Positions 37,073 through 59,953 are shown, numbered from the stretch's first letter. The stretch is DNA of 64,000 nucleotides from Candidatus Bathyarchaeia archaeon (GCA_050010755.1 JBEKKK010000003.1:127194-191193); one strand, 5' to 3'. The notes: generated by a model not told the origin, from the letters alone. A program made the numbers and translations.

Positions 37073-39604
37073 CTACGCTGGCATTATCAATATTGTTGGG
37101 CCAACGTATAATGGTGTGATTGCCACACCGCCTGCAACTGGTTCAAGACCGTCGAAGCCAGCGACGTTTATTGTTGCTATGCCTGCGTAGGCCCATTTCG
37201 GAATGGTTATTTGAACTGAGCCTGAGTATTGGCTATATGTGCAGAATACTGCTCCGCCGACTGTTGTTGTGTATGTTGCGGTTCCGACTGTCACTCCTAG
37301 GTTGTCTATTATTGAGACTTCGATGAGCACTGGGAATGGTAGGCTTATTGGGAATTGCTGCATGAAGTACGAGGTGAAGTTGAAGTAGACGGTGACGGTG
37401 TCGCCGTGATTGTACATTGACATGTCTGTTGTGACGCTGGTGATGTGGATTATGTAGTCGTACTTGAAGTTCAATGTGTCGTTGATTACAACGTCGGCTA
37501 ATTCGACTGTTGAAACCTCGTTCCACTTGCCCAACAAGGCGGCGTCTTGGTTAGGATCGCATGGCCATGGCATTCTGATGCCAATGGTGGCGATTCCATC
37601 GGAGTCTGTGATGGCTGAAGTCTTCATGTAGAGCGAACCGTCGGGTTCTGTGATTTCAAAGGCTACGTTCTTGCTCTGAACTGGCCAGCCGTTGTAGGAT
37701 ACGTACGCGTTGAAGTACACGAATGATTGTGGCTCAACCATGTCCATCGGCATGTTTGCACCTTGTCCGCCGTATGGTGCGGGGAATGCCCAGTCGTTGC
37801 CTTCGGTAACTGGGAACGGACTATCAGTGCCCGTTAGCAGGTATCCGTGGCCACTGTTCACTGCTCCACCATACTCGTCAATCATTCTTCCTACTTGCCA
37901 GGCTGGTGTTGTTACTTCGTAGAGTGCGTTGATAGGTGCCAGCATGATTGGGTAGACTATGTTACCCATACCATCAAGGCCTACGATGAACGAGGCGCTC
38001 GGGTCATTGAGTATCGTCAAGGGACTTGTGATGCTTCCGGTTGGCGGTTGGTACAAGCACTGGAACGTGATCTCCGCTATGACATCAGACGCATTTGCGA
38101 ATGGGGGCATCCATCCTCCATTCGTCTCGTTTGGCAGAATGATGTCAGCGAACAGCACGTTTGGTCCCCAGGTTCCTATGTTGGAGTTGATTGAAGTGCT
38201 TAGGAATGTGTTTTCACCGTTGTTAGCTGCTGCTGCCCATTCTGGGAAGAACGGACCCTCAGCGACGCTGAGCGGTGCCATCAGAGTAGAGTTGTACTGT
38301 AGCACGAACTGTGCACCAATGACGTTGTTTGACTTTCCTGGGTTCAAGGTGACGTTAACGACGAATGTGTTTCCAACGCATGGGTTTGGACCCTCAATTG
38401 TGAGCGGTGGCTGTACGACGAACTGCGCAGGGATAACGGATAAGAATCCATAGACCTGCACGTCCGGAGCATTAACATCTGCGGCGCGCGTCACTATGCC
38501 CGTGGTGTTGTACAGAACTGTAGTGCCCGAGTTTACAACCATGTTGGAATCGTCGTAGTATCCCATTGGATATGGCGGAATGATCTCTTGGGTTAGTATT
38601 TGGAAGCCGATAACCGCGAAAGTTCCTGGTGAGTTAGTATTGTTAGCTGCGAATAGCGTTATAACGCCAGGACTGACAATGGCTGGTGTGCCTGTCCAGT
38701 CTGCGCCGTAGGTTACGTTTGTCACTGTTAGCAACGTTGTGTTGCTGTAGTCGACTTCAACAGTAGCGTTTACTGCATTCCAGTTTGGAATGGTAACATC
38801 CTCATAGAAGCTTGTTCCAACCTCGTTGTTGAGGTCGTATCCTGTTGGACCCGTAATGGTTGCGAAAGTAGTCGATGTCTCGGGCGTGATTTTAACGTAT
38901 GGCATTTGTGGTGGCGGTGGTGGTGGCAGAGCGATTTGATAATTGTAGTTGCCATAGGCAGTGGCAAAGTCTTGCGAACCTCCAGTGTTGACTATGAACG
39001 CAACACTCGGGTCCCAAGCGATCGTGCCAATTGCTGGAAGTGACGAGAAAGCGCCCGCTTGCCACTGGAACGTCATGGTTATGAGTTCTTCTACGAACGG
39101 TGCTGTTGCCGGCAACACGGATATTCCCAAGAGTACTTCACCGAATCCTGAGGGCTCGCCTATGGTGCCCGCAACGTTGTCCGGTGCGCTCGGAGGCGTA
39201 ACAGAGTCCAAAAAGGGCGGTGTTCCCGTGCCAGGAGCGTAATAGGTGTTGTCGAAGAACCATGAGCTTTGCGAGCTACTGTTGGCAACAAACGCGACGC
39301 TCATGCAGTGGATTTGGGTTGCGTTGAACGTGAATGCACCTACCCAACCACCCTCATCGGCAGTCGTGTTGATCCACGCTGTTACAGTGAAAGTGCCTCC
39401 AACGGTCGCGTTAACGCCACTTGTGTAGAAATCTAGACCTTGGTTGGTTACTGATCCTACGAGAAAGAGGCATGGTGCTGGTGCCGTAGCTACTGGGACA
39501 CTTTGCGGTGCAGCTGTTGCCCTGAACATGGCTGCTGGTAGAAAGCCTAAGATCATTGCTGTTATGAGTACAGTTGCAAGTAATTTACTTAATGCTTTGT
39601 TCAT
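37073..39604 (-). CDS. Multi-cohesin scaffoldin/S-layer-like protein with C-terminal FPAPYGG module
   Basis: Signal peptide; two to three cohesin-like domains (GNTFVVNVTL..GAQFVLQYNSTLM..EGPFF..IAEITF); poly-Pro linker; no dockerin and no TM. Confidence 0.75.
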   Translation of the reverse strand: MNKALSKLLATVLITAMILGFLPAAMFRATAAPQSVPVATAPAPCLFLVGSVTNQGLDFYTSGVNATVGGTFTVTAWINTTADEGGWVGAFTFNATQIHCMSVAFVANSSSQSSWFFDNTYYAPGTGTPPFLDSVTPPSAPDNVAGTIGEPSGFGEVLLGISVLPATAPFVEELITMTFQWQAGAFSSLPAIGTIAWDPSVAFIVNTGGSQDFATAYGNYNYQIALPPPPPPQMPYVKITPETSTTFATITGPTGYDLNNEVGTSFYEDVTIPNWNAVNATVEVDYSNTTLLTVTNVTYGADWTGTPAIVSPGVITLFAANNTNSPGTFAVIGFQILTQEIIPPYPMGYYDDSNMVVNSGTTVLYNTTGIVTRAADVNAPDVQVYGFLSVIPAQFVVQPPLTIEGPNPCVGNTFVVNVTLNPGKSNNVIGAQFVLQYNSTLMAPLSVAEGPFFPEWAAAANNGENTFLSTSINSNIGTWGPNVLFADIILPNETNGGWMPPFANASDVIAEITFQCLYQPPTGSITSPLTILNDPSASFIVGLDGMGNIVYPIMLAPINALYEVTTPAWQVGRMIDEYGGAVNSGHGYLLTGTDSPFPVTEGNDWAFPAPYGGQGANMPMDMVEPQSFVYFNAYVSYNGWPVQSKNVAFEITEPDGSLYMKTSAITDSDGIATIGIRMPWPCDPNQDAALLGKWNEVSTVELADVVINDTLNFKYDYIIHITSVTTDMSMYNHGDTVTVYFNFTSYFMQQFPISLPFPVLIEVSIIDNLGVTVGTATYTTTVGGAVFCTYSQYSGSVQITIPKWAYAGIATINVAGFDGLEPVAGGVAITPLYVGPTILIMPA

Positions 39605-42754: not shown

Positions 42755-43978
42755 TTACCTGCTCTGTGTCGTTCCGGTTCCTGTTTGAGGCTGCCCAGAA
42801 AAGTCTGGTCTGCGCATCTTTTGCTGTCTCAATCTTCTCACGCGGTTTCTTCGCACCGCCGACCTGACCGAGGATATCACTATGGCGGCGACGATGATTC
42901 CGAGGAAGGTGTACAAGATCGGCGTCCAGTCGAAGAGGTTCAGGGCCAAGTCCACCGTGATCGGGTAAATGAAAGGCGTAGAAACCTGGGTCGCGTTGGG
43001 GCCTGATCGAGCCACGAGAGTCAGGTTCACATCAAATATGCCCACTCCTGTGTAAACGTGTGTTATGAGCGCGTCCGTCGGAGACCCGGTCGCATTGACC
43101 ACAGTCGTGTTTCCATCGCCAAAGTTCCAGATGTACTCGGTTATCGTTCCATATTTATCGTAGGAATCAGAGGCGTTAAAGTATGTTGGCAGGTAAGCGA
43201 AAACATTAGTTGTGGTAACCCCTTCACCAGCCGTATACATAAGGAGCAGGTGGTTCTTGCTGCTGACGGGTGTGCCGTGGCATACGAAGGAGCCAAACGG
43301 CGGTGGAACGGAGAGTCCGGCGATTACGATGAGCGTCGCATTCGTTAAGTCAAAGTTGTCATTTTCACCACCTAAAAGAGCCTGATCCGAGTTTTGCGTG
43401 AACGTATACCATGCTTGGCTGCCTATTGGAGGGAGCATAGCGGTGTTGTTGATTGTGGAAATGTGAACAGTTGTCTCTCCCGCCGTTGCAACCGTGAAGT
43501 TCACTTGAAAGAGCAAAGCGTTGGAAACATCCATGCCCGCTGTGGTGAGCAGCGACTGGCCAGCTTCTGCGACGCCAAATTGGTCCCTAAGATCTATCAA
43601 TGAAGACGGCGTCTGGTTAAACGGAGTAAGCATCGTCGAAACAGGACTGTGCGATCCAAACACGTTGTTAGCTGGAAACGTGAGATCTGTCATGTTCAGC
43701 ATCGTCTGGTTGTACTTGAACACTATTTGGTAGTCATAAAGGTCTGTGTAATCTGTTATGTTCACGTTCATCGTGAAGGTCTCATTTACCTTCAGGATTA
43801 ACGTATCGTTCTGCTGCTGGCTGTTCGACTCTTGGCCAAGGATTAGGATTTTCGGCACTGTTGCCGCTGACACCGTGGCCACGTGCGTGGTCAGCCCTGC
43901 CACAACAATTGCACAGATGATAATTGCCGAGAGCTGTCTCAGTCTTCTTGAATAACCTGTGTCTATCCGTTTTTTCAT
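42755..43978 (-). CDS. Membrane-anchored cohesin + PKD protein, last gene of the ABC operon
   Basis: ATG at 43978, 11 nt after the oppF stop; cohesin FTMNVNITDYTDLYDYQIVFKYNQTML..LFQVNFTV; PKD YIWNFGDG; TM + basic tail. Confidence 0.82.
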   Translation of the reverse strand: MKKRIDTGYSRRLRQLSAIIICAIVVAGLTTHVATVSAATVPKILILGQESNSQQQNDTLILKVNETFTMNVNITDYTDLYDYQIVFKYNQTMLNMTDLTFPANNVFGSHSPVSTMLTPFNQTPSSLIDLRDQFGVAEAGQSLLTTAGMDVSNALLFQVNFTVATAGETTVHISTINNTAMLPPIGSQAWYTFTQNSDQALLGGENDNFDLTNATLIVIAGLSVPPPFGSFVCHGTPVSSKNHLLLMYTAGEGVTTTNVFAYLPTYFNASDSYDKYGTITEYIWNFGDGNTTVVNATGSPTDALITHVYTGVGIFDVNLTLVARSGPNATQVSTPFIYPITVDLALNLFDWTPILYTFLGIIVAAIVISSVRSAVRRNRVRRLRQQKMRRPDFSGQPQTGTGTTQSR

Positions 43979-43989
43979 GTTTTGCTTCC

Positions 43990-45051
43990 TCAACCAGTTG
44001 ATTGTGAGACTGCGTAGCAGGCCACGAAATGTCCTTGTCCTGAGTCCAATAGCATGGGTTCCTTCTTCTTGCAAATGTCCATGGCCAACGGGCATCTGGG
44101 ATGGAAACGGCACCCAAGCGGGGGATTCACAGGGCTGGGCACTTCGCCTGTTAACGGCGCACGTTCCTTTCTCCTCGTTGGATCAGGTATGGGCACTGAG
44201 GCTATGAGGGCCTGAGAATATGGGTGCAGCGGAGTGTGGAATATCTGCTCCGTCGTGGAGTACTCAACGATTTTGCCTAAGTACATGATGCCGACCCGAT
44301 CGCTGATGCATTCGACGATGCTTAAGTCGTGGCTAATGAACATATAAGTGAGGCCGAATTCTTTTTGCAGATCCTGGAAGAGGTTCAGCAGTTGTGCTCG
44401 AACCGAAACGTCAACAGCAGAGGTCGGCTCATCGAGAATCACGAATTCAGGGTGGCTCACCAGCGCCCTCGCGATGGCTATTCTCTGTCTCTGGCCACCG
44501 CTAAATTCATGCGGAAACCTGAACAGCGCGCGCTCTGACATTCCTACTCTTTCAAGAATCTCCATGACCATTTTCTTGGCTTCTTCGCCACTGGCTATTC
44601 CCTGAGCATAGAGAGACTCCCCCACCACGTCCTTCACCAGCATCCGCGGATCCAACGACGTCGTGGGGTCCTGGTACACTATCTGCATTCTTCTCCTGAG
44701 TCGACGCAGATCCATTCCCGCATAGGTTGCTATGTCATACTTTCGTCTCAGTCTTCGAAGCACCGGAGAACGGGGGTTGCTCCTCGAAAGCTGATTGATT
44801 TGTGCAGTGACTTCTGCGGGAACACCGAAATAGATGCTTCCAGCATCGGGTTTCAGCAGTCTCAGAAGTGTCTTTCCCAAGGTTGTCTTTCCGCAGCCTG
44901 ACTCTCCGACCAACCCGAAACATTCGCCTCTATCCACGCTTATAGACACATCGTCAACTGCTCTCACACTGGCCACCCTGCGCTTGAAAACCCCACCGTA
45001 TATCGGATAATACTTCTTCAATTGTTTCAGTTCCAACAGTGGCGCCATCAT
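43990..45051 (-). CDS. oppF: Oligopeptide/dipeptide ABC transporter ATP-binding protein (OppF/DppF)
   Basis: GESGCGKTT, FSGGQRQR, ILDEPT, HDL, C-terminal PPLGCRFHPRC; ATGA overlap with oppD. Confidence 0.93.
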   Translation of the reverse strand: MMAPLLELKQLKKYYPIYGGVFKRRVASVRAVDDVSISVDRGECFGLVGESGCGKTTLGKTLLRLLKPDAGSIYFGVPAEVTAQINQLSRSNPRSPVLRRLRRKYDIATYAGMDLRRLRRRMQIVYQDPTTSLDPRMLVKDVVGESLYAQGIASGEEAKKMVMEILERVGMSERALFRFPHEFSGGQRQRIAIARALVSHPEFVILDEPTSAVDVSVRAQLLNLFQDLQKEFGLTYMFISHDLSIVECISDRVGIMYLGKIVEYSTTEQIFHTPLHPYSQALIASVPIPDPTRRKERAPLTGEVPSPVNPPLGCRFHPRCPLAMDICKKKEPMLLDSGQGHFVACYAVSQSTG

Positions 45052-46568
45052 GACCCTCCGTAAAGATGGCACGAGACATAGTGGTCAGGTTTGACCTCAA
45101 TGAACTTCGGCTTCACGCTCAAGCACTGCTCGGTTGCATAGCTGCACCTGTCGTGAAACCTGCAACCTTTCAACGGGTTTACCAAACTCGGAACTATGCC
45201 CGGGATTGACTTGAACGGTTCGCCCGGCCTCGGGATTGAATCGAGCAGTGCACGTGTGTACGGGTGAAGCGGGTTGCTGAATGTCTCGAAAACATCAGCG
45301 GTCTCGACCACGTTTCCAGCGTACATCACCGCAACCCGATCGCATGATTGCGCGACTACACCCAGGTCGTGTGTAATATAGAGGATTGCCGACCCAAGGT
45401 TCTTCTTCAGCGTCTTCACCAGATTCAATATCTGGGCTTGAACCGTGACGTCCAAGTTGGTAGTCGGTTCATCGGCTATGAGCATTCTTGGATTGCAGGC
45501 TAACGCCATGGCAATGACTACTCTCTGTGCCATTCCACCGCTCAGTTCATGCGGATACATGCGTGCCACCCGTTCCGGATCAGGTATTTCCACGCTCTTC
45601 AGCACCTTGACGACCTCTTTCCGAACCTCGTTCTGGAACTGGCGTTTGCGATTAAACCTCGCCGGAAACCTCATGGCCCTGACGCGAACAGCCCCTGGGA
45701 TTCTGGTGCCTAAGCCCGGCTTGTATTCCGTGGGCTCGACCTGCATGAGCTCAGCATACTGTCTGTTACACTGTCCCAGCCACGCCATCACAGACTGCTT
45801 CTGTTTGTTAATGCTGACCATCTGCTTTTCTGTTCCTTTCTTTCCCTCTAGTTCTGTTTTCTGTTTCTCAAGCGTAGCCCTTAACCTTTCGAGCTTTGCC
45901 TTCTTCTTTTGAAACTGTCGCGCATTCTCAGTCGACCAATACCGCTCAGCCTTCAACAACCTTCGGTAAGATGCTATCTCATTGTTCGAGGGCTGTTTGG
46001 CCGTCAGGGCGGCAAGTCTCTTTTCAATCGTTTGCCTGCGTTTGGCAAGCTCTACCTTCTCTTTTTCTCCTTGAGGGTTCTCTTTGTCAAGCCGAGCCTT
46101 CTCCTTTTCGAGCACTGCCTTTCGGCCGTCGATGAGCCTCTTCTGAACAGAGGCTATGCTGTTTTCCAACAGTTCTTCTCTTCTGTGAACGAGCATGACC
46201 TCGGCGATCTGATTTTCAACCGAGTAAACAGGGTTGAGGTAGGCTCTCGGCTCTTGGAAAATCATCGATATATCTTTGCCCCTCACTTTTCTGATTGTAT
46301 CCTCTTTCATCGTTAGAGTGTTTTGTTGTTTCCCTGAATCTCGCAGAATAATCCTCCCGCCCTCAATGACGCCAGGCGGGGGGACCAGCCTCATGATTGA
46401 AAGACTCGTCACGCTCTTGCCACTACCTGTCTCGCCCACGAGGCCGAGAATTTCACCTTCCCTCACGAAAAGGTTGACTCCGTCAAGCGCTTCAACGACG
46501 CCTGCGTACGTGTAGAACTTTACTTCGAGATCTTGCACTTCAACTATGCTGCCCTTAGACATTGTCAT
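45048..46568 (-). CDS. oppD: Oligopeptide/dipeptide ABC transporter ATP-binding protein (OppD/DppD) with a large coiled-coil insertion
   Basis: GETGSGKS, MIFQEP, LSGGMAQR, IADEPT, GCRFHDRC; ATGA overlap with oppC. Confidence 0.93.
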   Translation of the reverse strand: MTMSKGSIVEVQDLEVKFYTYAGVVEALDGVNLFVREGEILGLVGETGSGKSVTSLSIMRLVPPPGVIEGGRIILRDSGKQQNTLTMKEDTIRKVRGKDISMIFQEPRAYLNPVYSVENQIAEVMLVHRREELLENSIASVQKRLIDGRKAVLEKEKARLDKENPQGEKEKVELAKRRQTIEKRLAALTAKQPSNNEIASYRRLLKAERYWSTENARQFQKKKAKLERLRATLEKQKTELEGKKGTEKQMVSINKQKQSVMAWLGQCNRQYAELMQVEPTEYKPGLGTRIPGAVRVRAMRFPARFNRKRQFQNEVRKEVVKVLKSVEIPDPERVARMYPHELSGGMAQRVVIAMALACNPRMLIADEPTTNLDVTVQAQILNLVKTLKKNLGSAILYITHDLGVVAQSCDRVAVMYAGNVVETADVFETFSNPLHPYTRALLDSIPRPGEPFKSIPGIVPSLVNPLKGCRFHDRCSYATEQCLSVKPKFIEVKPDHYVSCHLYGGS

Positions 46569-47701
46569 CTCCTCCTGAGCATCGGGTCTAGAACGTCTCT
46601 GAGCGCGTCTCCAAGCAAATTCCACCCGACCACAAACATCGCGATGAAGAATCCTGGAATAAAGAATGTGTGGAAGTAGAGCACTATGTTGCTGGCGTTT
46701 GTTATGACGCTTTGAGAGGCGCTGACAAGCTGTCCCCAATCTGGGTAGTTCGGGGGTGCGCCTATGCCGATGAACGCCAAAGCGGCTGCGGTCAGTATCA
46801 CGGAACCTATGTCCAAAGTGGCCACGATGAAGACAGGGTATATGCTGTTCGGCAGGATGTGCCTTGTTATAGTTCGAAAATCTGAGGATCCTGAGGCTCT
46901 TGAAGCTTCAACGAAATCCTCGTTCTTCACCCTTAAGACTTCCCCTCTGATTAACCTAGCGTAGCCTGGCCAACCGACCAGCGTCAACGCAACGAGAACT
47001 TTGTCCAGTTTTCCAAGATTGAGATTAAGAATTAACGGGAAGTACAGGTAGGTTATTAGCGAAAAGGCCAGGATTACCAAGAATACAGATGTAAATATCG
47101 CGCCAGTGCGATCGCGCCTCAACCCAAGAAAGATCACGACGAAAAATGCGGAGATGCCCAGAAACAGCATTGAAAGGTTCAACGGGATAGCTACTGGAAA
47201 AGCAAGCACTATTGCTATGGCAAGGATCAAGCCCGGAAAAGCGATTATGATGTCAGTGAATCGCATCAACGCCTCATCTATCACCCCCCCGTAAAATGCC
47301 GCCAACGTTCCGATAAGAAGACCGACGATGAGAGATATTACAACAACTGTCAAGCCTACCCTGAACGCCGTTATTGTTCCCCAGATGCAACCGTAATAAA
47401 TGTCATACTGATAGTACGTGGTACCAAAAATGTGTTCTGTTGTAGGCGGCGTTGGAACGTTATACCCAACCAGACCTGTGATGGTTTGGTCTTGGGGAAT
47501 TGCCCATGGATTGCCGCGATTCACAGAGGGAATTGGCGCGAGCACTGGAGCTAAGCATGCGATGACCACGAAGCCCAATATGATGATCAGGCCGGCCATG
47601 GCGAGGTTGGACTGTCTCATCCTCTTCAGCATGAACCTCCATTCTGAGATTCTCGGACGCATTCCTGTTTTGAACTCTTCCCATCTCGATGTCAGGCTCA
47701 T
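46565..47701 (-). CDS. oppC: Peptide ABC transporter permease (OppC/DppC)
   Basis: HIFGT...DIY, GWPGYARLIRGEVL, EAA loop FVEASRASG, RHILPN, PDWG, NLLGDALRDVLDP. Confidence 0.93.
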   Translation of the reverse strand: MSLTSRWEEFKTGMRPRISEWRFMLKRMRQSNLAMAGLIIILGFVVIACLAPVLAPIPSVNRGNPWAIPQDQTITGLVGYNVPTPPTTEHIFGTTYYQYDIYYGCIWGTITAFRVGLTVVVISLIVGLLIGTLAAFYGGVIDEALMRFTDIIIAFPGLILAIAIVLAFPVAIPLNLSMLFLGISAFFVVIFLGLRRDRTGAIFTSVFLVILAFSLITYLYFPLILNLNLGKLDKVLVALTLVGWPGYARLIRGEVLRVKNEDFVEASRASGSSDFRTITRHILPNSIYPVFIVATLDIGSVILTAAALAFIGIGAPPNYPDWGQLVSASQSVITNASNIVLYFHTFFIPGFFIAMFVVGWNLLGDALRDVLDPMLRRR

Positions 47702-47702
47702 G

Positions 47703-48752
47703 TCAATCCAACCTTATTCTGGGGTCGATGTACGCGTACATGATATCAACTATTAGGTTCGCTGACACAAACAAAAGGGCCGTAAGAACCGTGTAACCCA
47801 TAATGAAGGGAATATCCAAATTCGTGATGGCTTTGACGGCCGCACTTCCCAAACCTCCAAAGCCAAAAACTGTTTCAGTGATAATCAAACCAGTCAGGAG
47901 GCCCGCTACCAACATCCCGGAAAGAGTTGCAACAGGGATGAGAGCATTCCTTCTTGCATGCTTGTAGATGACGACCTTGTTGCTCAGACCCTTGGATCTC
48001 GCCGTCGTAATGTAAGGCTTGCTCAGCGTCTCAAGCATAGAGGAACGCATCACTCTTATCAGCAAGGCAACATCGATGGTGACAACGGTGATCACGGGCA
48101 GAACGCAATGCCAAAGAACGTCAAGCGATAAGTACGGCTGACCGTTCAACAGCCCGTCAAACAAGTCTATACCAGTGTAATGCATGAAATGGTTCTTCGG
48201 AGTCAGCATATAGACTAACCAGGTATTTGTCATCGATCCCGCATAGGGGAACCAGCCAAGAATACCCGCAAACACCGCCAGAAGCAGCATGCCAACGAAG
48301 AACGAGGGAAGCGACCAACCGATGATAGACAGGAGCCTCGATGCTTGGTCAATCGGTCCGTTCCTGTGAATCGCAGATTGAACCCCAAGATATATCCCCA
48401 AGAAAATAATCAACGGGGCTGCAAAGACAACAATCTCAAACGTGTAAGGCCACTTCGTCGCAATTGACACTACCACGTCTTGATTACTGCTCACTGACCA
48501 CCCGAGGTTCCCATGCAACAGATTTATCAACCAGGTCCAGTACTGCACATAAAACGGAGCATTCAAATGATACTGTTGAATTGCGTTTGCTATCGCCTCT
48601 GTAAGATACTTAACACTCCCATGAACATAAAGAAGCGCTCTCATATCGACAGGAAGCAGCATAGTGACAATGAAAACCAAAATAGTAACACCGAGCAACA
48701 CGAACACAAGCAAGATTAACCTTCTTACTATGTAAGCTGCTAGATTCGCCAT
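47703..48752 (-). CDS. oppB: Peptide ABC transporter permease (OppB/DppB)
   Basis: YIVRRL, QYWTWL..LLHGNLGWS, RSSMLE..YITTARSKGL, KHARRNAL, YAYIDPRI; ATG at 48752. Confidence 0.93.
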   Translation of the reverse strand: MANLAAYIVRRLILLVFVLLGVTILVFIVTMLLPVDMRALLYVHGSVKYLTEAIANAIQQYHLNAPFYVQYWTWLINLLHGNLGWSVSSNQDVVVSIATKWPYTFEIVVFAAPLIIFLGIYLGVQSAIHRNGPIDQASRLLSIIGWSLPSFFVGMLLLAVFAGILGWFPYAGSMTNTWLVYMLTPKNHFMHYTGIDLFDGLLNGQPYLSLDVLWHCVLPVITVVTIDVALLIRVMRSSMLETLSKPYITTARSKGLSNKVVIYKHARRNALIPVATLSGMLVAGLLTGLIITETVFGFGGLGSAAVKAITNLDIPFIMGYTVLTALLFVSANLIVDIMYAYIDPRIRLD

Positions 48753-49381
48753 CTCCGAAACCCCGACATAAATCAACCTAAAATCAATATTTAAGCCTGT
48801 CGCACTAGCGCGATTCCTTGTTCCTTCCGTCTCACGTGTCTTGTGACGCAACTCCCAACGCTAGAGCGCGCAGCTCTTCCTCTTCTAACAAAAGCGCGCG
48901 CGCAAAAAATGAAAGCAAGAACTGATTCGAAGTCTCCAACAGTCAGCCGGCTTTAATCTCCATTCAGTTCATTGCTCGCGTCATTGTCTGGAAGTTCTCG
49001 CATAACCCAAGCCCAGTTTCGCAAGACAGAAGGAAAATGTTCCAACGTAACAGAAAGAGGCAATTTGTCTTTACAAATCGTCCACCTCAAAATCAAGCTC
49101 TCAACACACATCAAACCCAACCCGGAGACAAGAAGCGTACAGAGCATGATTTCGCAGCCACAACAAAACCCGCTTCCTGATATCCTACTCAAACGACAAA
49201 GAAAAATTATAAGATACAAGTATTCGTGCCTCAAGAATAAGAGAAGAATATCAAAAGAAGCCTCAGCAGAGGGAACAGAGTTTTCAATTTTGAAGCAACG
49301 CGTTCGTTCAGAAGCAAGCGACTTCAACAATTCAAGGAACGCAAACTCGTAGAATCAAATCCTGCAGCGCGAGGCTCAAAC

Positions 49382-49397
49382 AAGAAAAAAGGGGGAG
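49382..49397 (-). terminator. Oligo-T terminator after oppA
   Basis: Minus strand TCCCCCTTTTTTCTT just after the stop. Confidence 0.55.
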
Positions 49398-49423
49398 AGT
49401 GTTTAGCTTAGGTCTTCAACCGT

Positions 49424-52114
49424 TTAAGAGGCGTACACGCCAGCCCACATCGAATAGGTCGTAACCGTATTCGATAGGCCCGCTGTCGTGCGTGCTGATG
49501 CGACGGCGCCTGTGAACGTGTCAGTCACTGTGCAGAAGACGTAGGAGCTTCCAGCCGGAGCGGTAAACGTGAATGTTGCTCCTGTTGGGCCCGCTGTCGG
49601 TGCACCTAGCTGACCACTTGCCAACGTTCCATAGTACCAATGTATCACACGGCCAGTCGGGTTTCCGTAGCCTGTAAGAGGCGTTGCGGTAAAGGTTATA
49701 CCAGTTCCTGTAGACACAACGCTTGTGATCGGCTTTATGGTCACCAATGGACCAAATGTGCCGATCGGGCTGGATACACCGAACTGTCTAGCCACGAATG
49801 CAATGGCCTTCATGTTGATTGTTCTGATGTTCACAAGGTCATCCACGAACACCCAGTTTATTGGGATAGGTTCGGTGAAGCTTGAGCCGAACGCACGAGC
49901 GATTGAGGCGATGTCTTTCATGTTGACTGTGCCATCGCGGTTAACGTCTGCGGCCAGATACTCACTGAACGGTTGCGTTGCACTGGCCTGGTTTGCTTCT
50001 GGCACGTAGTAGAACTTGTATTCGTTAAAGTAGTTGTGGCCTGGGTAAATGGGGTTGTAGTACCAGCCCTGAACCCAGTCGTACTCAAAGTGGCGGCCCG
50101 TGGGGGTGATAACCATAACACTCGGGCAGTCAGCAATTGCTAGCTGTGCCACAGCGCTATAGTCTGCAGCTCTCGCTGGACCGTTAGGTAGAGTAATGGC
50201 GTCGTTAATCAGAGCGTCCATCGTGGCGTTAGAGTATAGTTGCCATGAGCTGAATGCGCCTCCAGTGTGGTAGAATGGCAGTGCGAAGTCGTGCGGGTCT
50301 GGGAAGTCAACGAGCCAGCCGATGACATACGTAGATATTTGCTGTGTTTCTGCGGCTAGCAGGTACGGTTTCCAATCGAGGCTTATTATGTTGACGTGGA
50401 AGTTCGGACTTATGCTTTGGATTGCTGTCTGGATCAAAGTGCACAGCTCTTGCCTCTCTCCGTTGCCAGTGTTGTAGGCCAACGTTATGGTGAACCCGTT
50501 GGTCATTAGGTTTGGCCAAGCATTGAAGTATTGAGCTGCCGCTGTCAGGTTGTAGTTGAAGCCCACGATGCTTGCATTATATCCGTACAAGCCTGGAATA
50601 ATGGCTGTTGCGGGTACAATGCCTTCACCCAACGCTGCAACTGCGAGTTCCTGCGCGTAGTTTATACTGTACGCGAAGGCCTTCCTCATGTCGATACCGT
50701 ATGGGTTACCAAACGGCTCGTTTCCGAAGAAGTTGCTCGGAATTCCAGCAGGGTTAAAGGTCGCAGGACCGCCTGACACTGGTGGGTCGATTACTCCGTA
50801 AGGAGTCGCGGTCGATATGTTCATTGTGAAGAACAGACCGTCGACTTCCAGCTCAGCCAGGTTTGCGTAGCAGCGTATGCCAGCATCTGGAAAGTTTGTC
50901 GATGAAGACGGCAATGGATAGTAGCTTCCGGTATAGCCATTCGTGTAGATGTCACCGATGTTAGCAAGTGAAGGAAGCGCCGCAAAGTCACAGTCACCGG
51001 ACTTGAAGAAGCCCTGTGCTGCTGACCATGCGTAGTTCCACGACACTTCAATCGAGTTCGCGTAGCCTGCAACTCCTGCGCCAGCCTCTGTTGGATAGAA
51101 GGCCGGTGCTCCGCCCCACCAGTTGGGGTTTCTGGTTGCAGCCCATTCATTGTGGGTGTAATCCGGTGTGCCTGGCGTCAGGATGAACGGACCAGAACCG
51201 TACTCCATCGGAGTTGGTGTGTCCAACGGCGATAGTGCGGGGTTCCAGAGGGGCACCCATGCTGTCAGGTTCGTGAAGCTTCCGTCCCAGTCGGGGCGGC
51301 CTGCTCCGGCGATGACTTGGTTGTTGATCCACTGCTTGCTCTCTACAGATGACCAGGTCTGGCAGAGAATCTGCAGGAACGGTGCGTAAGCGCCTGGGAA
51401 CATTATGTTGAACCAGACGTCCGTAGCGTTATACTGCACAGAGTCTCTGACCAGTGCGCCAATCTGGGCGTCCATCGCTGTGTTCGCGAAGTCAGTTCTA
51501 TTGAAATATGGCAATCCAGCTAATCCTCCGTATGAAGGATTAATGCCTCCGGCGTTGTCCAGCAAGGGTTCGTCCAACATCCATTGTGGACCACTTGCCC
51601 TGTCCTGGAACAACGTGCGTTGGAAGCTGTATACAACGTCTGCAGTTGTTAGGCTGTAGTTGTAAGGAGGCGCAAACTGGACACCTTGGCGGAGTTTGAA
51701 GTCATACTGCCAGTAATACTGAGCATTTGTCGTGCCATTAAGCTGTGCATTGTTTTCGAAGAGCAATGCGGAAACTGAATCAGAGCTAGGCGGATTCGGA
51801 ACTCCAATGGTAGAATGCCCACTGGTTACCGGCCCATCTGATTCGCTCGTAGCGAGTGCGAAGATGTACGGAGAACTTGAGCTCTCTGCGTTCCACATGA
51901 GCAGCGTGTCCATCGTGTTCTGCAGTATTTCGCCGCTTGCAGTGTCGTAACACCATGAGTAGTCAACGGTCGATGGGTTTCCACCCTGAATGGTGATGTC
52001 GTACAAGTCCATCGGTCTCTTAATCGGCGGTGATGCCATTATCGGCGGTGCTAATATCGCTGATACTCCCAGTAGAAGACCTATGATCAAAGCTATTGGA
52101 ATCATTTTGTTCAT
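49424..52114 (-). CDS. oppA: Family-5 (Opp/Dpp) solute-binding protein with C-terminal dockerin and Ig-like domain
   Basis: YDTASGEILQN, FKLRQGVQF..LTTADVVYSFQR, GSGPF, MRKAFAYS, GWLVDFPDP; then ADVNRDGTVNMKDIASIARAFG. No lipobox and no TM. Confidence 0.9.
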   Translation of the reverse strand: MNKMIPIALIIGLLLGVSAILAPPIMASPPIKRPMDLYDITIQGGNPSTVDYSWCYDTASGEILQNTMDTLLMWNAESSSSPYIFALATSESDGPVTSGHSTIGVPNPPSSDSVSALLFENNAQLNGTTNAQYYWQYDFKLRQGVQFAPPYNYSLTTADVVYSFQRTLFQDRASGPQWMLDEPLLDNAGGINPSYGGLAGLPYFNRTDFANTAMDAQIGALVRDSVQYNATDVWFNIMFPGAYAPFLQILCQTWSSVESKQWINNQVIAGAGRPDWDGSFTNLTAWVPLWNPALSPLDTPTPMEYGSGPFILTPGTPDYTHNEWAATRNPNWWGGAPAFYPTEAGAGVAGYANSIEVSWNYAWSAAQGFFKSGDCDFAALPSLANIGDIYTNGYTGSYYPLPSSSTNFPDAGIRCYANLAELEVDGLFFTMNISTATPYGVIDPPVSGGPATFNPAGIPSNFFGNEPFGNPYGIDMRKAFAYSINYAQELAVAALGEGIVPATAIIPGLYGYNASIVGFNYNLTAAAQYFNAWPNLMTNGFTITLAYNTGNGERQELCTLIQTAIQSISPNFHVNIISLDWKPYLLAAETQQISTYVIGWLVDFPDPHDFALPFYHTGGAFSSWQLYSNATMDALINDAITLPNGPARAADYSAVAQLAIADCPSVMVITPTGRHFEYDWVQGWYYNPIYPGHNYFNEYKFYYVPEANQASATQPFSEYLAADVNRDGTVNMKDIASIARAFGSSFTEPIPINWVFVDDLVNIRTINMKAIAFVARQFGVSSPIGTFGPLVTIKPITSVVSTGTGITFTATPLTGYGNPTGRVIHWYYGTLASGQLGAPTAGPTGATFTFTAPAGSSYVFCTVTDTFTGAVASARTTAGLSNTVTTYSMWAGVYAS

Positions 52115-54356: not shown

Positions 54357-54696
54357 AACATCACCCTGACGTATCACCTTCCAAAACCCCGCCCCAAACG
54401 GGCGCAAGTCAAGCACCCAGCCTCTAATTCAGTTCTATCAAATCCTTTTCAAGCACTCTGATCGAATCGCGCCCGCAGTCTCCAATCTAAAAAAGACCCC
54501 TTTGAACCTTGCTCCTTCAAACCAAATTGGACAAGCGCGCGCAAATCAGCGGTTAACACGTGCGCTCTACTCCCCGATACTAACGCACAAAGCCGGATCG
54601 AGCCGTTTCAGCAAGGGTTCACATGCGCACAGTTTCTCAGCGTCCGCAAATCATATTTCCCAAATGCTTTCATATCTGACTAACCTGGCGAAACGC

Positions 54697-57468
54697 TTGA
54701 AAAAATTCGTTCTGGGAACAGTGGCAATCCTTCTTCTGGGACTGAGTTTCTACACAAGCTTTTCACGTGCAGACGCAACCACGATGTCAGTCACGCCCGC
54801 ACAGATAACGGTCACGCCTGGCCAATCTTTCACAATCAACGTGACCGTAAACAACGTCAACAACCTGAACTCGTGGCAAATCGACCTAAAATACAACGCC
54901 TCAATAATCAACTGCACCGCAGCATGGATTCCCCAAGACAATGTTTTCGATAACCAGCCAACAATCCCAGTTCCCCCCCTCCTGAACGCGCCCACCCTCG
55001 ACGGCTACAACTACTCAGAGTACGGCCTCGCGCTGTTCTCCGGCTCAACAAACGTGAGCGAGGGCATTCTGTGCAGCCTCAACTTCACCTGCCAAGCATA
55101 CGGCTCAGCGCCCCTGCAAATAGCAACCGCCTCAAACCCCGTCGAGACCGGCAACTTCTACTCTCCAACACAACATTATTCTTTCCTCTTGGACCCTGAC
55201 GTAAGCGAAATACCGTTCGCCAACCAAGACGGGCAAATAACGAATGGTTTGCAGCAGATCCTTACAATCATCTCAGCACCCGATGGAACTACTTCTCCCC
55301 CGCCCGGAAACTACTCCTACACCTACGGAGACAACGCCTCAGTGACAGCAATTCCAGACACCGGCTACATCTTAAACAATTGGAAACTCGACAACAGCAC
55401 GTTCGGATCCGCAAACCCCGCCACAATCCTTATGGACACCAACCATACGCTACAGCCAATGTTCGTTCAGGCAAACTGCACGCTAATCATAAACGGAGCG
55501 ACCGGAGGCAACACAAGCCTCCCGCCAGGAACATACACCTACATTGCGGGACAAACGGTCAACGTCTCCGCCACGGCCGATAACGGCTACGCATTCAGCT
55601 ATTGGATGCTCGACGGCTCAGAGGCAGGCTCAGCAAACCCCCTGGCCATCAGCATGAGCGCTAATCACACACTCGCACCAGTTTTCACCTCAACAAGCTA
55701 CGAGTACGTCTACATCAGGACTGACGGCAGCATCGATCCTCCAATAGCCCCGCTCTTAACCTCAGACAACATCACATACCAGATAACTGCCGACCTGAAC
55801 TCCACGTTAACAGTCCAGAGAAGCAACATAGTCATCGATGGAGATGGCCACACGCTCCAAGGCAGCGGAAACGGAGAAGGCATCAGACTGATAGCAGTAA
55901 ACAACGTCTCCATCACCGACATCAACATAACAGGCTTCGACAACGGCGCCGACCTCTCAGAAACATCCCAGGATTCAATCTCAGAGACCAACATAACAGC
56001 AAACAACGGGGTAGGCATCAGCCTCTACGACTCATCCAACAACACGATTTGCAGAGACAACATTAACGCGAACGAAGGCGGTGCCCTACGTCTTGACTAC
56101 ATGTCCAACTACAACAGCATTCTGGGAAACAACATAATAAACAACGGTTACGTAGGCATCTACGTCGACTCTTCCTCAGCCAACCTCTTTTGTGACAATA
56201 ACATCATAAACAACACCATCCAAGCCCAAGTAGCCGCAAACGGGTACCCGCCCGTCAATTCTTGGGACAACGGCATAGAGGGCAATTATTGGAGCGACTA
56301 CCTCGGAGCCGACTCCCACCTAAACGGAATAGGCGACCAACCCTACACCGTAGCCGAAAACAACACCGATCGCTTCCCACTCATGGGCCTCTTCTCAAGC
56401 TTCAACGCGCCGCAAGGCTATTCGCTTAGCCTAGTCTCGAACTCCACGATAACGGATTTCAGCTACTCAAATTCAACCAGAAAAATAAGCTTCAACACCC
56501 AAGGCGAAAGCGGCACGACAGGCTTCTGCGCGCTGACGATTCCCCACGCCCTCATAAACGCAGGTCACATGCAAGTACTCATAGACAACGGAAGCAACCC
56601 GATACTGTACTCAAACCTCGACCTCCGCGACAACACGACCCACAGATGGATATACTTCTCATACAAACAGTCAACCCACACCGTCACAATCCAAGAAGAC
56701 TGGACACCTCCCACAATTATCCTGCTGTCCCCCGAAAACACAACATACGCCGCAAACCATGTTTCCTTAAACTACACCGTGAGCGAACAAATGTCCTGGG
56801 AAGGGTACAGCCTCGACGGCTCAGCCAACGCCACGATAATCGGAAACCAGACCCTCACCAACATCCCTGACGGCTTCCACTCGATAATCGTCTACGGCAA
56901 CGACACGCAAGATAACATGGGTTCCTCAAAAACCATCCAGTTCACAATCGACACAACACCCCCCAGCATAACCAAGATACTGCAAAACCCAGAAAACGAA
57001 GTGTCGCCGAACGAACCAGTAACCATCACCGCCACAGTAACCGACAACACCAGCGGAGTCAAAAACGTAACCCTGAACTACACATACACGAACGGATCCG
57101 CAACAGTCGCAAACCTTCTTGCAATGCAAAACGTTCAGGGAAACACTTGGAACGCCACTATACCCGGCTTCTCATATGGCACGAACGTAACCTACACGAT
57201 AACCGCTGAAGACAACGCGGGCAACACCAACACAACACAAGGGACAGGACAAGCCTATCAATACGAAATACTGCCCGAAATCCCAGCCCTGTTCACTCTG
57301 CCACTTCTGATAATCATCTCACTACTAACGACGACGCTCATGAAAAGAAAAACCGCAACCGTACACCGTACCCGAAACACACTATACTTTCATCCAACAC
57401 CCAACACCATTTCTAACTCGCCACCTCGAGATTCGTGCGCCCCTGAGAAAATCCGACCTTCTGAATAG
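54697..57468 (+). CDS. Cohesin + InlB-B repeats + NosD beta-helix + Ig-like protein with PE(I)-CTERM-like anchor
   Basis: Cohesin GQSFTINVTVNNVNNLNSWQIDLKYN..LCSLNF; GNYWSDY; ILPEIP + TM + KRK. TTG start chosen (ORF track start 54502). Confidence 0.85.
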   Translation: MKKFVLGTVAILLLGLSFYTSFSRADATTMSVTPAQITVTPGQSFTINVTVNNVNNLNSWQIDLKYNASIINCTAAWIPQDNVFDNQPTIPVPPLLNAPTLDGYNYSEYGLALFSGSTNVSEGILCSLNFTCQAYGSAPLQIATASNPVETGNFYSPTQHYSFLLDPDVSEIPFANQDGQITNGLQQILTIISAPDGTTSPPPGNYSYTYGDNASVTAIPDTGYILNNWKLDNSTFGSANPATILMDTNHTLQPMFVQANCTLIINGATGGNTSLPPGTYTYIAGQTVNVSATADNGYAFSYWMLDGSEAGSANPLAISMSANHTLAPVFTSTSYEYVYIRTDGSIDPPIAPLLTSDNITYQITADLNSTLTVQRSNIVIDGDGHTLQGSGNGEGIRLIAVNNVSITDINITGFDNGADLSETSQDSISETNITANNGVGISLYDSSNNTICRDNINANEGGALRLDYMSNYNSILGNNIINNGYVGIYVDSSSANLFCDNNIINNTIQAQVAANGYPPVNSWDNGIEGNYWSDYLGADSHLNGIGDQPYTVAENNTDRFPLMGLFSSFNAPQGYSLSLVSNSTITDFSYSNSTRKISFNTQGESGTTGFCALTIPHALINAGHMQVLIDNGSNPILYSNLDLRDNTTHRWIYFSYKQSTHTVTIQEDWTPPTIILLSPENTTYAANHVSLNYTVSEQMSWEGYSLDGSANATIIGNQTLTNIPDGFHSIIVYGNDTQDNMGSSKTIQFTIDTTPPSITKILQNPENEVSPNEPVTITATVTDNTSGVKNVTLNYTYTNGSATVANLLAMQNVQGNTWNATIPGFSYGTNVTYTITAEDNAGNTNTTQGTGQAYQYEILPEIPALFTLPLLIIISLLTTTLMKRKTATVHRTRNTLYFHPTPNTISNSPPRDSCAPEKIRPSE

Positions 57469-57553: not shown

Positions 57554-59485
57554 CTATTGAGAATAGTACTTATTAAGATCACGCATGTAGATGACTCTCT
57601 TCACCAAGAACACAATCAAGAAAGCAGCCGTCAAGAATAAGGCCACATCTGGGATAGCTCCCCCAAAAACCACCGGGCCGTTGATCGTCGACGGCACACG
57701 TCCACCTTCTGAAATTTCGGCCTTGAGCAAACCTAGGCTGGTGAAGGGTATGCCAAAGCATTCGGTGAGCAGAATCGCCGGGTATCCTTGGTCGGTGATT
57801 TCAGTCTCCACAAACACTGAATGCACTGCAAGTGACGCAACCAAGAAAATCAAGGTCAAAAGGACAATAATCATGACCTCTTTCCCGCCGATTAAAGAGG
57901 TAACATCGTGCGTAAAGCCCTTGAGAAGAATCCTTAAGCGGGATTGGAACAAATACACAGCGGCCACACTCGTCACGGCGACCGCCGCAAAGGAAATGTA
58001 GAGTTCTTCAAGAAATGGACTGAAAATCGTGGATAAAACCCGCATTATCGAAAGCCCAGCAGCCTGCGTTTGACTCTCAAGATCGGCCGCTGTAACCCAC
58101 CCGGCGGTGGATGAGGTATCATTTTCAGTGTTTATCCAATCCAGCGGTGACGAACTAATCATGATGCTCGACTTCACGCGCGACCCGTTCACGTCCTCTA
58201 TCCCAGATGTCCCTCCCCAGAGCGAACTGTAAATCTTATCGGCCAAGGCAGGATTTCTGAAAGTCTCCTGATCCGAGCCTCCCGTGTTTATCACGCTCAC
58301 GGTCAAGCCCAAATCAGCAGCCGCGCCCGTGACAATACTCTGCAAATTCAGTCCATTATCATCTGGAAACGTTTGCGAAACCGTCATCATCTGACTTCCC
58401 AGCGAGTCCAAGTTAATCACGGCGACAATGTTGTTCATCTCGGACTCGTGCTGCTTAACATAATTTACCGAACCCGCAAACCCGAGATCCCCACCGGCGA
58501 AGGCTACGAAAACAAGCGTGTACTGTGGCTTGTATTCGCCCTCTCGCTCAGCCTCAGAAAAAACCCTAGCCAACTCTAACACAGCCGCCGTTCCTGAACC
58601 GTCACCGCAAAACCCCGCGTTCATAACAGTGTCATAATGCGCCGAGACTACAATCATCTTCTGGGGATCCACGGAGCCAGGAAGCTCCGCGACGATGTTG
58701 TAATGCGTACCCTGTCCGATTGCAGCAGGAATGGAAACGAAGGCGGAAACGTTCTCCTCAGCCATCATCGCACCGATCGAGGCGCTGTCGCTGGAATCGA
58801 TCCAGCCGACGGGAATCTTCATGTTCCAATAATCCATGCCTCCGTGAGGGCTGAACAGCTCTGGCCCATCTGCAACCGTAAATATTATGGCCGCGGGCGT
58901 TTGAGAGTTTATCTTGGCCAAAAATTGCAGGGCAAACTCAGATGGAACGTTGTCTGGGACGAGCAAGACCGTGCCAGTGCTGTCCAACGCGAGCCAAACG
59001 CCTGGATCGTAGTACGGGGGCAACGCCACGACGCTCGCGTTGACTCCCCCTTTAGGAGTGGGCCAACTGTAATGTTCACACTGAAAAGAGCTTATCGCAA
59101 CCTGAGAACTCGAAACGTTCAAGCCTCCGTAGCCGTACACCACAAGAGTCGGCTGCGCCAAGAGACCCCAAGTTGTCAAATTGAAAGTCTCATTACTAGT
59201 TTCAAGCCCGAACCCCTCGAACTGCTGTTGAATCCAACCTGCCGCCGCCTCTGCCCCTGGCGAACCGGACGAGCGAAACGTGTAGCCCGACAAGCTCTGA
59301 TTCAAAGCAATATTCTCCAGCTGCAAATCATAATTGTATATGTTCGTACCATTTATCTGTGAAACGATCTCAGACTCGACCGACGACAAGTGCGAATAAT
59401 CGCTGGTCGCCGACACCACTACAAAATTCGTCAGTATCAAAGCTAGCACACAGAAGACAGCAATCCCCAAACCGGCGAACTTCAA
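57554..59485 (-). CDS. M28 aminopeptidase-like protein (PA-like insert, C-terminal TMs) with degenerate active site
   Basis: NIVAELPG..IVVSAHYDT, AVLELAR, AVINLDSLG, GSDQETF; the canonical EE and final His are missing. TTG start at 59485 after GGGGGA. Confidence 0.82.
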   Translation of the reverse strand: MKFAGLGIAVFCVLALILTNFVVVSATSDYSHLSSVESEIVSQINGTNIYNYDLQLENIALNQSLSGYTFRSSGSPGAEAAAGWIQQQFEGFGLETSNETFNLTTWGLLAQPTLVVYGYGGLNVSSSQVAISSFQCEHYSWPTPKGGVNASVVALPPYYDPGVWLALDSTGTVLLVPDNVPSEFALQFLAKINSQTPAAIIFTVADGPELFSPHGGMDYWNMKIPVGWIDSSDSASIGAMMAEENVSAFVSIPAAIGQGTHYNIVAELPGSVDPQKMIVVSAHYDTVMNAGFCGDGSGTAAVLELARVFSEAEREGEYKPQYTLVFVAFAGGDLGFAGSVNYVKQHESEMNNIVAVINLDSLGSQMMTVSQTFPDDNGLNLQSIVTGAAADLGLTVSVINTGGSDQETFRNPALADKIYSSLWGGTSGIEDVNGSRVKSSIMISSSPLDWINTENDTSSTAGWVTAADLESQTQAAGLSIMRVLSTIFSPFLEELYISFAAVAVTSVAAVYLFQSRLRILLKGFTHDVTSLIGGKEVMIIVLLTLIFLVASLAVHSVFVETEITDQGYPAILLTECFGIPFTSLGLLKAEISEGGRVPSTINGPVVFGGAIPDVALFLTAAFLIVFLVKRVIYMRDLNKYYSQ

Positions 59486-59953
59486 ACAGTCCCCCGTACA
59501 CGAGTGCAAAACCCAACTTTTAGGCTTAACTGAACGCAGATCGAAAAAGCTCTCATAAACCTACGACACAAAACACGCAAGCACTAGCTTTCATACGGTT
59601 GGGACAACGGGCTTGGGAAAAAGAATATCGAAACGCTCATCTTATGCAAGTCACATTCATGAAAGGCCGCAAAGAGCCGGTAAAGACAAATACAACAGAC
59701 CCAACAGCAGATTCAGCGAAGAATTTCACCAAACGGGTGGGCTCAAATGCGTGGAGAGTCTGTTGCGCATTGGAGAATGGAAAAGCAAATGTCTCCGCAC
59801 ACCTTGCCTCTTCACGTGGGAACGGCTTAGGAATGAAATCAGTACCGGCAGGGTCAAGAATTCCAAAGACAGCGAAATAGGGGAAAGACAGTTTTCAGGG
59901 TTTGAGAAGAACGAGTAAGCTTAGAATCAAGAGAAAAAAGAGGTTGTTGGTGG

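Follow-up and report, generated by a model that had tools for sequence, protein, structure and literature searches.

How does an archaeal cell that lacks an outer membrane hold on to the binding protein of a peptide importer when that protein appears to carry neither a lipid nor a transmembrane (TM) anchor? Receptors of ABC importers are classically retained by a periplasm, by a lipid anchor, by a TM anchor or by fusion to the permease. The question is raised by an opp locus in a 64,000-nucleotide (nt) stretch of DNA from a Candidatus Bathyarchaeia archaeon (GCA_050010755.1, JBEKKK010000003.1:127194-191193), hereafter the window, which corresponds to G000:C3:127194-191193 in our numbering of the source genome, G000 (2.19 Mb, 8 contigs, 93% complete). 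The substrate-binding protein (SBP) encoded there, OppA, contains a dockerin, and the last gene of the operon, cohTM, encodes a membrane protein with a single cohesin. The sequence evidence set out below makes it rather probable that OppA is held at the cell surface by its dockerin, on the dedicated cohesin that cohTM provides.

The opp locus, the OppA dockerin and the membrane cohesin

Six genes lie on the minus strand of the window in the order oppA, oppB, oppC, oppD, oppF and cohTM (Table 1). The parts of an Opp/Dpp-type transporter (PepT family) are all found above the Pfam cut-offs, i.e. SBP_bac_5 (OppA residues 136–620, E 1.5e-28), two BPD_transp_1 permeases, one with OppC_N, and two oligo_HPY ATPases; by its domain content oppABCDF is an Opp/Dpp-type ABC importer, with peptide as its predicted substrate. 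From oppB onwards the genes are tightly coupled: the oppC ATG lies 1 nt past the oppB TGA, the oppC/oppD and oppD/oppF junctions are ATGA overlaps, and 11 nt separate the oppF TGA (43992-43990) from the cohTM ATG at 43978, which is exactly the distance that an earlier note on this DNA had given for a cohesin-PKD-TM gene behind oppF. An independent DNA contig spans the oppF/cohTM junction (43041-44140) with 0 differences, and an assembly chimera at the locus was ruled out by independent contigs. DNA of the window is also matched in peat and wetland metagenome runs.

The spacer between oppA and oppB contains a T6 tract (CCCCCTTTTTT) ~45 nt 3′ of the oppA stop and a TTAAATAT box ~40 nt 5′ of the oppB ATG. 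The equivalent spacer is 558 nt long in the closest relative (L023) and 57–270 nt long in more distant orthologs (57–147 nt in genome loci, 270 nt in L026). A terminator followed by a promoter, or else an RNA element, could be situated in this spacer, and oppA seems to be a transcription unit of its own, apart from oppBCDF-cohTM. A scan of bacterial-type promoters and terminators gave no excess over shuffled sequences (10 versus 8.9 and 10 versus 10.4), and a hairpin with a T-run directly 3′ of the cohTM stop (42751-42739) carries no weight. Orthologs of oppB encode 345–350 residues. OppD has a ~130-residue, highly charged, coiled-coil-like insert (KEKARLDKEN...KQKTELEGKK) within its ABC domain, with an ABC_tran match spread over 343 residues; its orthologs mostly have 372–424 residues, and the L023 ortholog has 506, like OppD of the window.

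Because the sole hydrophobic segment of OppA in a scan of the whole protein comprises residues 1–29 (the stretch itself being residues ~4–26), a C-terminal TM helix is absent. There is no Cys in residues 1–40, hence no lipobox, and an alignment of 14 OppA orthologs (A4) reveals no low-complexity linker ahead of the conserved core. The earlier description of OppA as lacking both a lipobox Cys and a C-terminal TM thus holds. The residue at −1 is Ala or Gly in all 13 aligned OppA N-termini, and the core begins ~8 residues on; from the conserved −3/−1 motif and the missing linker we infer that the signal peptide is cleaved before Ser28.

The dockerin of OppA is internal rather than terminal, being followed by an Ig-like domain. 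The Pfam model Dockerin_1 (PF00404) matches residues 720–741 only, at 18.4 bits, and the same site reaches 22.7 bits in a whole-genome Pfam scan, both below the gathering cut-off of 22.9; a homolog from the same SBP family (P0035) has a precomputed PF00404 match. A hidden Markov model (HMM) of 37 other dockerins of the source genome (of 41 Pfam matches), from which OppA was left out, gives 57.7 bits over residues 720–781 and recovers the dockerin that the earlier note had placed at ~49775-49955. With this HMM the paralog OppA2 scores 52.7 bits and most other dockerins of the genome 100–125 bits, OppA being among the lowest. Two tandem repeats of ~22 residues, each a 12-residue Ca loop plus a helix, and a short linker are present in OppA, and both F-hand repeats, the linker Trp and both FG ends align with the 37 dockerins. 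Loop 1, DVNRDGTVNMKD (D723–D734), is canonical, with ligands D723, N725, D727 and D734. Loop 2, DLVNIRTINMKA (D759–A770), is degenerate, as previously suggested: it departs from the genome consensus DINGDGVVNMKD through the changes N3>V, D5>I, G6>R and D12>A, by which the ligands at positions 3, 5 and 12 are gone (V761, I763, A770) and only D759 is kept, the Ca-ligand set D1, N/D3, D5, D12 being complete in loop 1 only.

More distant operonic orthologs have a canonical loop 2 (D-x-N-N-D-R...D), with ligands in both loops. Five of the nine sequences from the window's subclade in A4 share the degenerate loop DLVNIRTINMK and the other four vary at 1–2 positions, the member P0035 retaining D5 and D12 of loop 2. 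Position 6 of loop 2 is Arg throughout alignment A5 (16 rows), and F742, G743, P749, W754, D759, F778 and G779 are invariant over the 14 sequences of A4. Judged by these alignments, the degenerate loop 2 is a derived trait of the window's subclade, under selection. With one half degenerate, the dockerin might conceivably bind in a single orientation, as the earlier note had proposed. The Ig-like domain, whose best Foldseek matches are generic V-set-like Ig folds (E ~3e-4), is confined to that subclade and absent from more distant orthologs (A4); the degenerate loop and the Ig-like end were gained in the same subclade.

In the AlphaFold2 (AF2) model of cohTM, the mean predicted local distance difference test (pLDDT) value is 77.8, and block means over the cohesin are mostly 72–91 (residues 41–220), with a dip to 60 at residues 121–130. 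A Foldseek search of the PDB with this model returned cohesins at probability 1.00 (2w1n, E 6.7e-9), with template-modelling scores on the target of 0.60–0.74 (5lxv, 6kgf, 3ul4, 1aoh; 0.74 for 6kgf_A); the predicted fold is the flattened β-sandwich (jelly roll) of cohesins. PF00963 is unmatched in the window's cohTM itself at E≤0.1. The family has 17 full-length homologs; 10 of 18 sequences match PF00963 at E≤0.1 (best 4e-8), five homologs have precomputed PF00963 matches, and the family profile has weak matches to solved cohesins in the PDB (E 0.0014–0.08; best 2y3n, E 0.0014). A cohesin assignment that was merely a Pfam-less guess is ruled out by the fold match together with the PF00963 matches of family members. 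The PKD part has PDB profile matches to the PKD domains of ColH and ColG. A conserved DW(T/S)P precedes the TM helix, followed by RSAVRRNRVRRLRQQK, and W351, R372, S373 and R379 are invariant in 18 cohTM sequences; by the positive-inside rule, the cohesin would lie outside and the Arg-rich tail inside the cell. A profile search of 1.84 billion representatives, dominated by multi-PKD proteins, placed at least 23 full-length, single-stretch cohTM-like proteins of 347–415 residues among the best 150 matches, a count that is a lower bound. A complex prediction with cohTM residues 38–228, OppA residues 708–792 and one Ca, run without controls, scored 0.13 and 0.11, below a mark of 0.32, values that speak neither for nor against binding.

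Table 1. Features of the opp locus and related cohesin and dockerin genes (window coordinates unless a contig of G000 is given)
Feature	Coordinates	Strand	Description and basis
oppA	49424..52114	-	896-residue open reading frame; signal peptide, SBP_bac_5 core, dockerin, Ig-like domain
OppA signal peptide	52034..52114	-	residues 1–27, MNK...PPIMA/SPP (slash, predicted cleavage); sequence and hydropathy scan
OppA dockerin	49772..49957	-	residues 720–781; genome's own dockerin HMM and alignment
OppA Ig-like β-sandwich	49427..49744	-	residues ~791–895; AF2 block means mostly 67–93
oppA-oppB spacer	48753..49423	-	671 nt, non-coding; sequence read
oppB permease	47703..48752	-	start ATG 48752; BPD_transp_1 E 1.5e-36 (Pfam)
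oppC permease	46565..47701	-	BPD_transp_1 and OppC_N (Pfam)
oppD ATPase	45048..46568	-	506 residues from ATG 46568; ABC_tran and oligo_HPY (Pfam)
oppF ATPase	43990..45051	-	ABC_tran and oligo_HPY (Pfam)
cohTM	42755..43978	-	407 residues (P0001); signal peptide, single cohesin, PKD, TM helix, Arg-rich tail
cohTM cohesin	43313..43855	-	residues ~42–222; AF2, Foldseek and family PF00963 matches
cohTM PKD	42938..43207	-	residues ~258–347; PKD_4 E 1.5e-10 (Pfam)
cohTM TM helix	42866..42925	-	residues ~352–371; hydropathy
Second membrane cohesin protein	54502..57468	+	988 residues; start codon uncertain; Pfam and hydropathy
Secreted cohesin-bearing protein	37073..39604	-	843 residues; Pfam Cohesin E 2e-9
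Dockerin-tagged peptidase, A4	G000:C5:23664-24977
Dockerin-tagged peptidase, C25	G000:C6:43382-46864
Dockerin-tagged peptidase, M14	G000:C7:29239-31197

Distribution of membrane anchors, dockerins and cohTM

Eight SBP-family open reading frames (ORFs) of the source genome, from five Pfam families, were surveyed for anchors. Four lack a dockerin and are anchored by an N-terminal TM with an S/P/T-rich linker; in these proteins Tyr/Trp residues follow the TM, and then comes the S/P/T-rich stretch, which is long in one only. In three (OppA, OppA2 and a PstS-like protein) a signal peptide with Ala at −1 is combined with a dockerin, and there is no linker; the remaining one has neither a dockerin nor an N-terminal hydrophobic segment. 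The PstS-like protein (PBP_like_2; G000:C3:91831-93048) has its dockerin directly behind the signal peptide (...VRA/D), with no cohesin gene seen next to its gene; where the dockerin would sit, the paralog encoded at C1:1387968-1389119 instead shows a TM segment with a Ser-rich linker at its N-terminus. The dockerin-less OppA relatives whose ends were read (n = 5) are all TM-anchored, either at the N-terminus, with or without a PT-rich linker (L033, L036, L041), or at the C-terminus (L039, L049). Among the eight SBP-family ORFs, TM anchors and dockerins are mutually exclusive. This exclusion is the best reason to think that the dockerin functions in place of an anchor, and the chief objection to an N-terminal segment of OppA that stays uncleaved as its anchor.

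A profile search of 332 genomes of the same family identified full-length cohTM in ten (G000, G597, G390, G396, G581, G559, G490, G521, G576 and G495). In all ten the gene sits 3′ of oppF and shares its strand, and it is directly adjacent in eight, where the orthologous genes overlap oppF or start within a few nt of it; in G576 and G495 it is ~5.3 kb from oppF, with 2–3 cohesin or dockerin genes between, including dockerin-only and cohesin-plus-dockerin adaptor genes. Close dockerin-bearing OppA proteins occur in 14 of the 332 genomes. Co-occurrence in relatives, which the earlier note had put forward as a check on the pairing, is indeed found: in 8/8 genomes with enough contiguous sequence, a dockerin-bearing OppA is present at the locus where cohTM stands next to or near oppF, heading the operon in seven and lying 1.6 kb beyond cohTM in G490. 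As cohTM in those genomes is only 27–34% identical to the window's protein, the linkage is old. Both cohTM and dockerin-bearing OppA are missing from three of four other genomes of the same genus (G590 and G592, 97–99% complete, and G593, 77% complete).

When metagenomes were scanned with the OppA alignment, 78 loci were recovered, which overlap in part with the genome loci and are all from relatives, so that the figures are counts and not independent trials. Among dockerin-positive operons with sequence past oppF, four of five have cohTM directly after oppF (L018, L023, L026, L030), and the fifth, L048, has another gene order, with four cohesin genes downstream of OppA. A cohesin-like ORF was found in none of the 15 dockerin-negative operons with at least 1 kb past oppF, the whole locus being searched in each. 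The genome dockerin HMM missed divergent dockerins in L047, L055, L074 and L078, which were spotted by eye; L047, for this reason, and L046 and L093, with <400 nt after oppF, were left out of the dockerin-negative count. L092, where OppA is 3′-open and hence unclassified, has a 241-residue cohesin-TM gene 1.2 kb past oppF.

In a tree of 66 dockerins from the source genome and 11 related loci, the OppA dockerins form a clade of their own, which unites all 12 OppA dockerins (source genome and 10 related loci) with one extra member at a local support of 0.835. The only close paralog of the cohTM cohesin in the source genome is the cohesin of the 988-residue protein (Table 1), at 121.5 bits with the cohTM profile (positions 8–205) and at 117.6 bits in a second comparison, in which the next best cohesin has 59.6 bits; by these scores the cohTM cohesin is a divergent subtype.

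A proposed dockerin-cohesin tether and its alternatives

According to the reading that we favour, OppA would be exported and its signal peptide removed, after which its dockerin would plug into the single cohesin of cohTM, giving non-covalent retention at the surface. cohTM would be a type I membrane protein whose cohesin and PKD spacer face outward and whose basic tail, behind a single TM helix, lies inside the cell; it would probably be made from the tightly coupled transcript that also encodes OppBCDF. In a cell devoid of an outer membrane, this would keep the receptor OppA and the orphan OppA2 near the translocator, with the dockerin-cohesin pair standing in for the N-terminal TM-plus-linker or C-terminal TM anchor of relatives.

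Several observations weigh against this reading. The source genome encodes at least four other TM-containing cohesin proteins, such that cohTM is not the sole possible dock, as well as many cohesin-plus-dockerin adaptors. The contact helices of the OppA dockerin, MKDIASIARAFG and MKAIAFVARQFG, are close to the genome's generic dockerin consensus, and cross-binding to the wider scaffold is plausible. In AF2 predictions of the C-terminal 192 residues of OppA (16-row alignment) the dockerin part has a pLDDT of 33–44, and because this confidence is too low the dockerin was called from sequence. Loss of three loop-2 ligands could, in canonical dockerins, impair folding or binding. Since the spacer with its T-tract splits oppA from oppBCDF-cohTM, the amounts of the two proteins may be unmatched, with OppA probably made in excess of cohTM. 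The linkage of the two genes may derive from one ancient event in related genomes. Orphan dockerin-bearing OppA proteins occur without full-length cohTM in G562, G530, G579, G598 and G599, of which G598, G599 and G530 have matches to the cohTM profile that cover the cohesin only and are strong to moderate, and additional orphan copies are present in G000, G396, G597 and G490, those of G597 being a tandem pair of which one copy has two dockerins. The orphan of the source genome, OppA2 (G000:C3:65785-68460, 891 residues), is 78% identical to OppA and shares its degenerate dockerin and Ig-like end; neither transporter nor cohesin genes flank its coding sequence. The orphans imply that cohTM goes with the translocator genes and that the dockerin-bearing receptor is separable from them.

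cohTM might instead be a general membrane socket for other dockerin proteins, e.g. peptidases, with OppA docking elsewhere or competing with ~40 others; a peptidase held beside the importer would then couple hydrolysis to uptake. The 41 dockerin and 14 cohesin Pfam matches of the source genome are consistent with such sharing, as are a dockerin cargo that includes Peptidase_A4, Peptidase_C25 and Peptidase_M14, the near-generic helices of the OppA dockerin, the dockerin and adaptor genes between oppF and cohTM in G576 and G495, and the association of cohTM with translocator genes, orphan OppA copies never having it. However, OppA is the sole dockerin protein constantly at the cohTM locus (8/8 contiguous loci), its dockerins form their own clade and the cohTM cohesin is of a divergent subtype; moreover, one cohesin holds one dockerin at a time. 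We therefore regard a shared socket as unlikely. Distinctly less credible is an OppA that keeps its N-terminal segment as an uncleaved signal anchor, the dockerin only recruiting the anchored receptor to a larger assembly. The hydrophobic stretch is long enough for a membrane span and other SBPs of the genome do use N-terminal TM anchors, but the four anchored SBPs have no A-x-A-like site, whereas OppA has Pro-Pro-Ile-Met-Ala/Ser, with Ala or Gly at −1 in every aligned N-terminus, no linker and the core close behind; the PstS-like dockerin SBP likewise reads ...VRA/D, and the surveyed SBPs have either an anchor or a dockerin, never both.

The subclade's dockerin could also be a decaying, non-functional relic, OppA being shed or kept by its Ig-like domain or within the S-layer space. 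The loss of N3, D5 and D12 from loop 2, the Pfam score below threshold, the lack of a confident AF2 fold and the Ig-like domain newly added behind the dockerin in the same subclade would fit such decay. Loop 1 and both helices, however, show conservative changes only in the nine subclade sequences (A4), the degenerate loop is itself conserved in a pattern that points to purifying selection, seven dockerin residues are invariant over 14 sequences, and cohTM is kept beside oppF in the subclade (L023; P0003-P0008, 55–68% identical), all of which makes a relic very improbable. An extension of the favoured tether, which we offer tentatively and with some doubt, is that cohTM acts as a sixth importer subunit, produced in step with OppBCDF, a private docking site for exchangeable OppA and OppA2, and that peptidases with sister dockerins share one surface 'peptidosome' with it. 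If true, protein breakdown and peptide uptake would be joined on one modular surface of sediment and peat archaea that eat detrital protein.

Known systems and neighbouring genes

Opp-type binding proteins of Sulfolobus have a C-terminal TM anchor. The system described here resembles TM-anchored archaeal Opp SBPs in its SBP_bac_5 family, its oppBCDF operon and the need for receptor retention without an outer membrane; in those SBPs the anchor is covalently part of the receptor, whereas here the TM helix is on a separate polypeptide and a protein-protein link is proposed. An envelope-fixed cohesin that captures a dockerin protein is also the principle of the anchoring scaffoldins of bacterial cellulosomes, with binding being predicted in the present case, and cellulosome structures matched by the cohTM model, and reached weakly by the family profile, include C. 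thermocellum SdbA/OlpA/OlpB (2b59, 3ul4, 4fl4) and R. flavefaciens ScaE (2zf9). Bacterial anchoring scaffoldins are fixed by S-layer homology (SLH) repeats or sortase linkage; in contrast, the anchor of cohTM is a TM helix, each protein has a single cohesin and its gene belongs to a transporter operon, and the cargo is a transport receptor rather than a glycoside hydrolase or scaffoldin. The non-cellulosomal cohesin of Archaeoglobus fulgidus (2xdh; Foldseek rank 36, probability 1.00) shares the archaeal cohesin fold, and we know of no transporter context for the cohesin or dockerin of that organism.

Dockerin-bearing binding proteins of the OppA/NikA and TroA types have been described in anaerobic methanotrophic (ANME) archaea, in a report that calls for binding experiments and refers to published evidence of binding between archaeal cohesins and dockerins (Chadwick et al., 2022, PLoS Biol; PMC9012536). 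As in ANME, an archaeal SBP of the OppA/NikA class carries a dockerin in a genome rich in cohesin and dockerin proteins, some of which combine both. The ANME account, as far as its treatment of these proteins goes, consists of domain annotations in Halobacteriota, the present locus being from Bathyarchaeia, and its section on dockerin-bearing SBPs does not mention an operon-encoded membrane cohesin (Chadwick et al., 2022). Unlike ANME as described there, a single-cohesin/PKD/TM gene is here the conserved last gene of the opp operon. The earlier note had presented the dockerin-cohesin tether as a different anchoring mode that replaces a lipid or TM anchor: the linkage and the complementary distribution of anchors speak for this, while a dockerin-bearing SBP is, given the ANME proteins, not new as a kind. 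In titles and abstracts retrieved by a literature search (PMC9012536 apart), no cohesin gene is described within an ABC-importer operon and nothing was found on Bathyarchaeia cohesin-dockerin proteins themselves. The novelty seems to lie in the membrane subunit with a single cohesin, conserved and encoded by the operon, dockerin-tagged SBPs being already known.

If the favoured reading is true, a non-covalent, modular plug-and-socket tether whose socket is a product of the transporter operon would add to the known ways of retaining a receptor, and non-cellulosomal archaeal cohesin-dockerin pairs, whose role has been a question since they were first noted, would gain a concrete function. The pair is small (a ~180-residue cohesin and a ~65-residue dockerin) and suited to recombinant binding assays without cultivation, and it bears on peptide harvest by Bathyarchaeia, which are abundant in peat and sediments.

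Two further cohesin proteins are encoded in the window. The gene for the 988-residue protein lies 2.4 kb upstream of oppA on the opposite strand; besides its cohesin the protein has a signal peptide, two InlB B-repeats, a NosD β-helix, Ig domains and a C-terminal TM (residues 923–948), with an ortholog at the equivalent place in L023 and similar frames of ~960–1000 residues in G490, G597 and G598. The secreted 843-residue protein is the ortholog of the gene directly after cohTM in two other genomes (phmmer, 343.7 bits versus the 781-residue gene of L012 and 305.5 bits versus the 772-residue gene of L015). Elsewhere in the source genome, a 470-residue protein (G000:C1:574224-575636) joins a cohesin at its N-terminus to several predicted TM helices; behind the N-terminal hydrophobic stretch, its hydropathy profile contains seven others that overlap in part. 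It may represent another kind of membrane socket.

The dockerin-tagged peptidases of Table 1 are predicted to be secreted and have generic-type C-terminal dockerins; that of family C25 is gingipain-like and carries a NosD β-helix. Most other dockerin cargo of the genome consists of NosD/β-helix, CARDB, PKD/Ig, lectin-like or propeller domains. Eight dockerin genes (381, 313, 716, 576, 793, 639, 535 and 252 residues) lie at 17837-36823 and 61310-62068 of the window, most of them without a recognised catalytic domain, and an Lrp/AsnC regulator is encoded within this run (20872-21390). An M28 peptidase of 651 residues (57554-59509, minus strand) adjoins the cohesin/Opp cluster; by eye it has apparent hydrophobic segments at both ends, and it would suit a peptide-harvesting neighbourhood. 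Near the start of the window, RNA polymerase subunit A is a single unsplit gene of 1273 residues (3727-7548, minus strand) with Rpb1 domains 1–5, adjoined by an unsplit subunit B gene (7550-10915).

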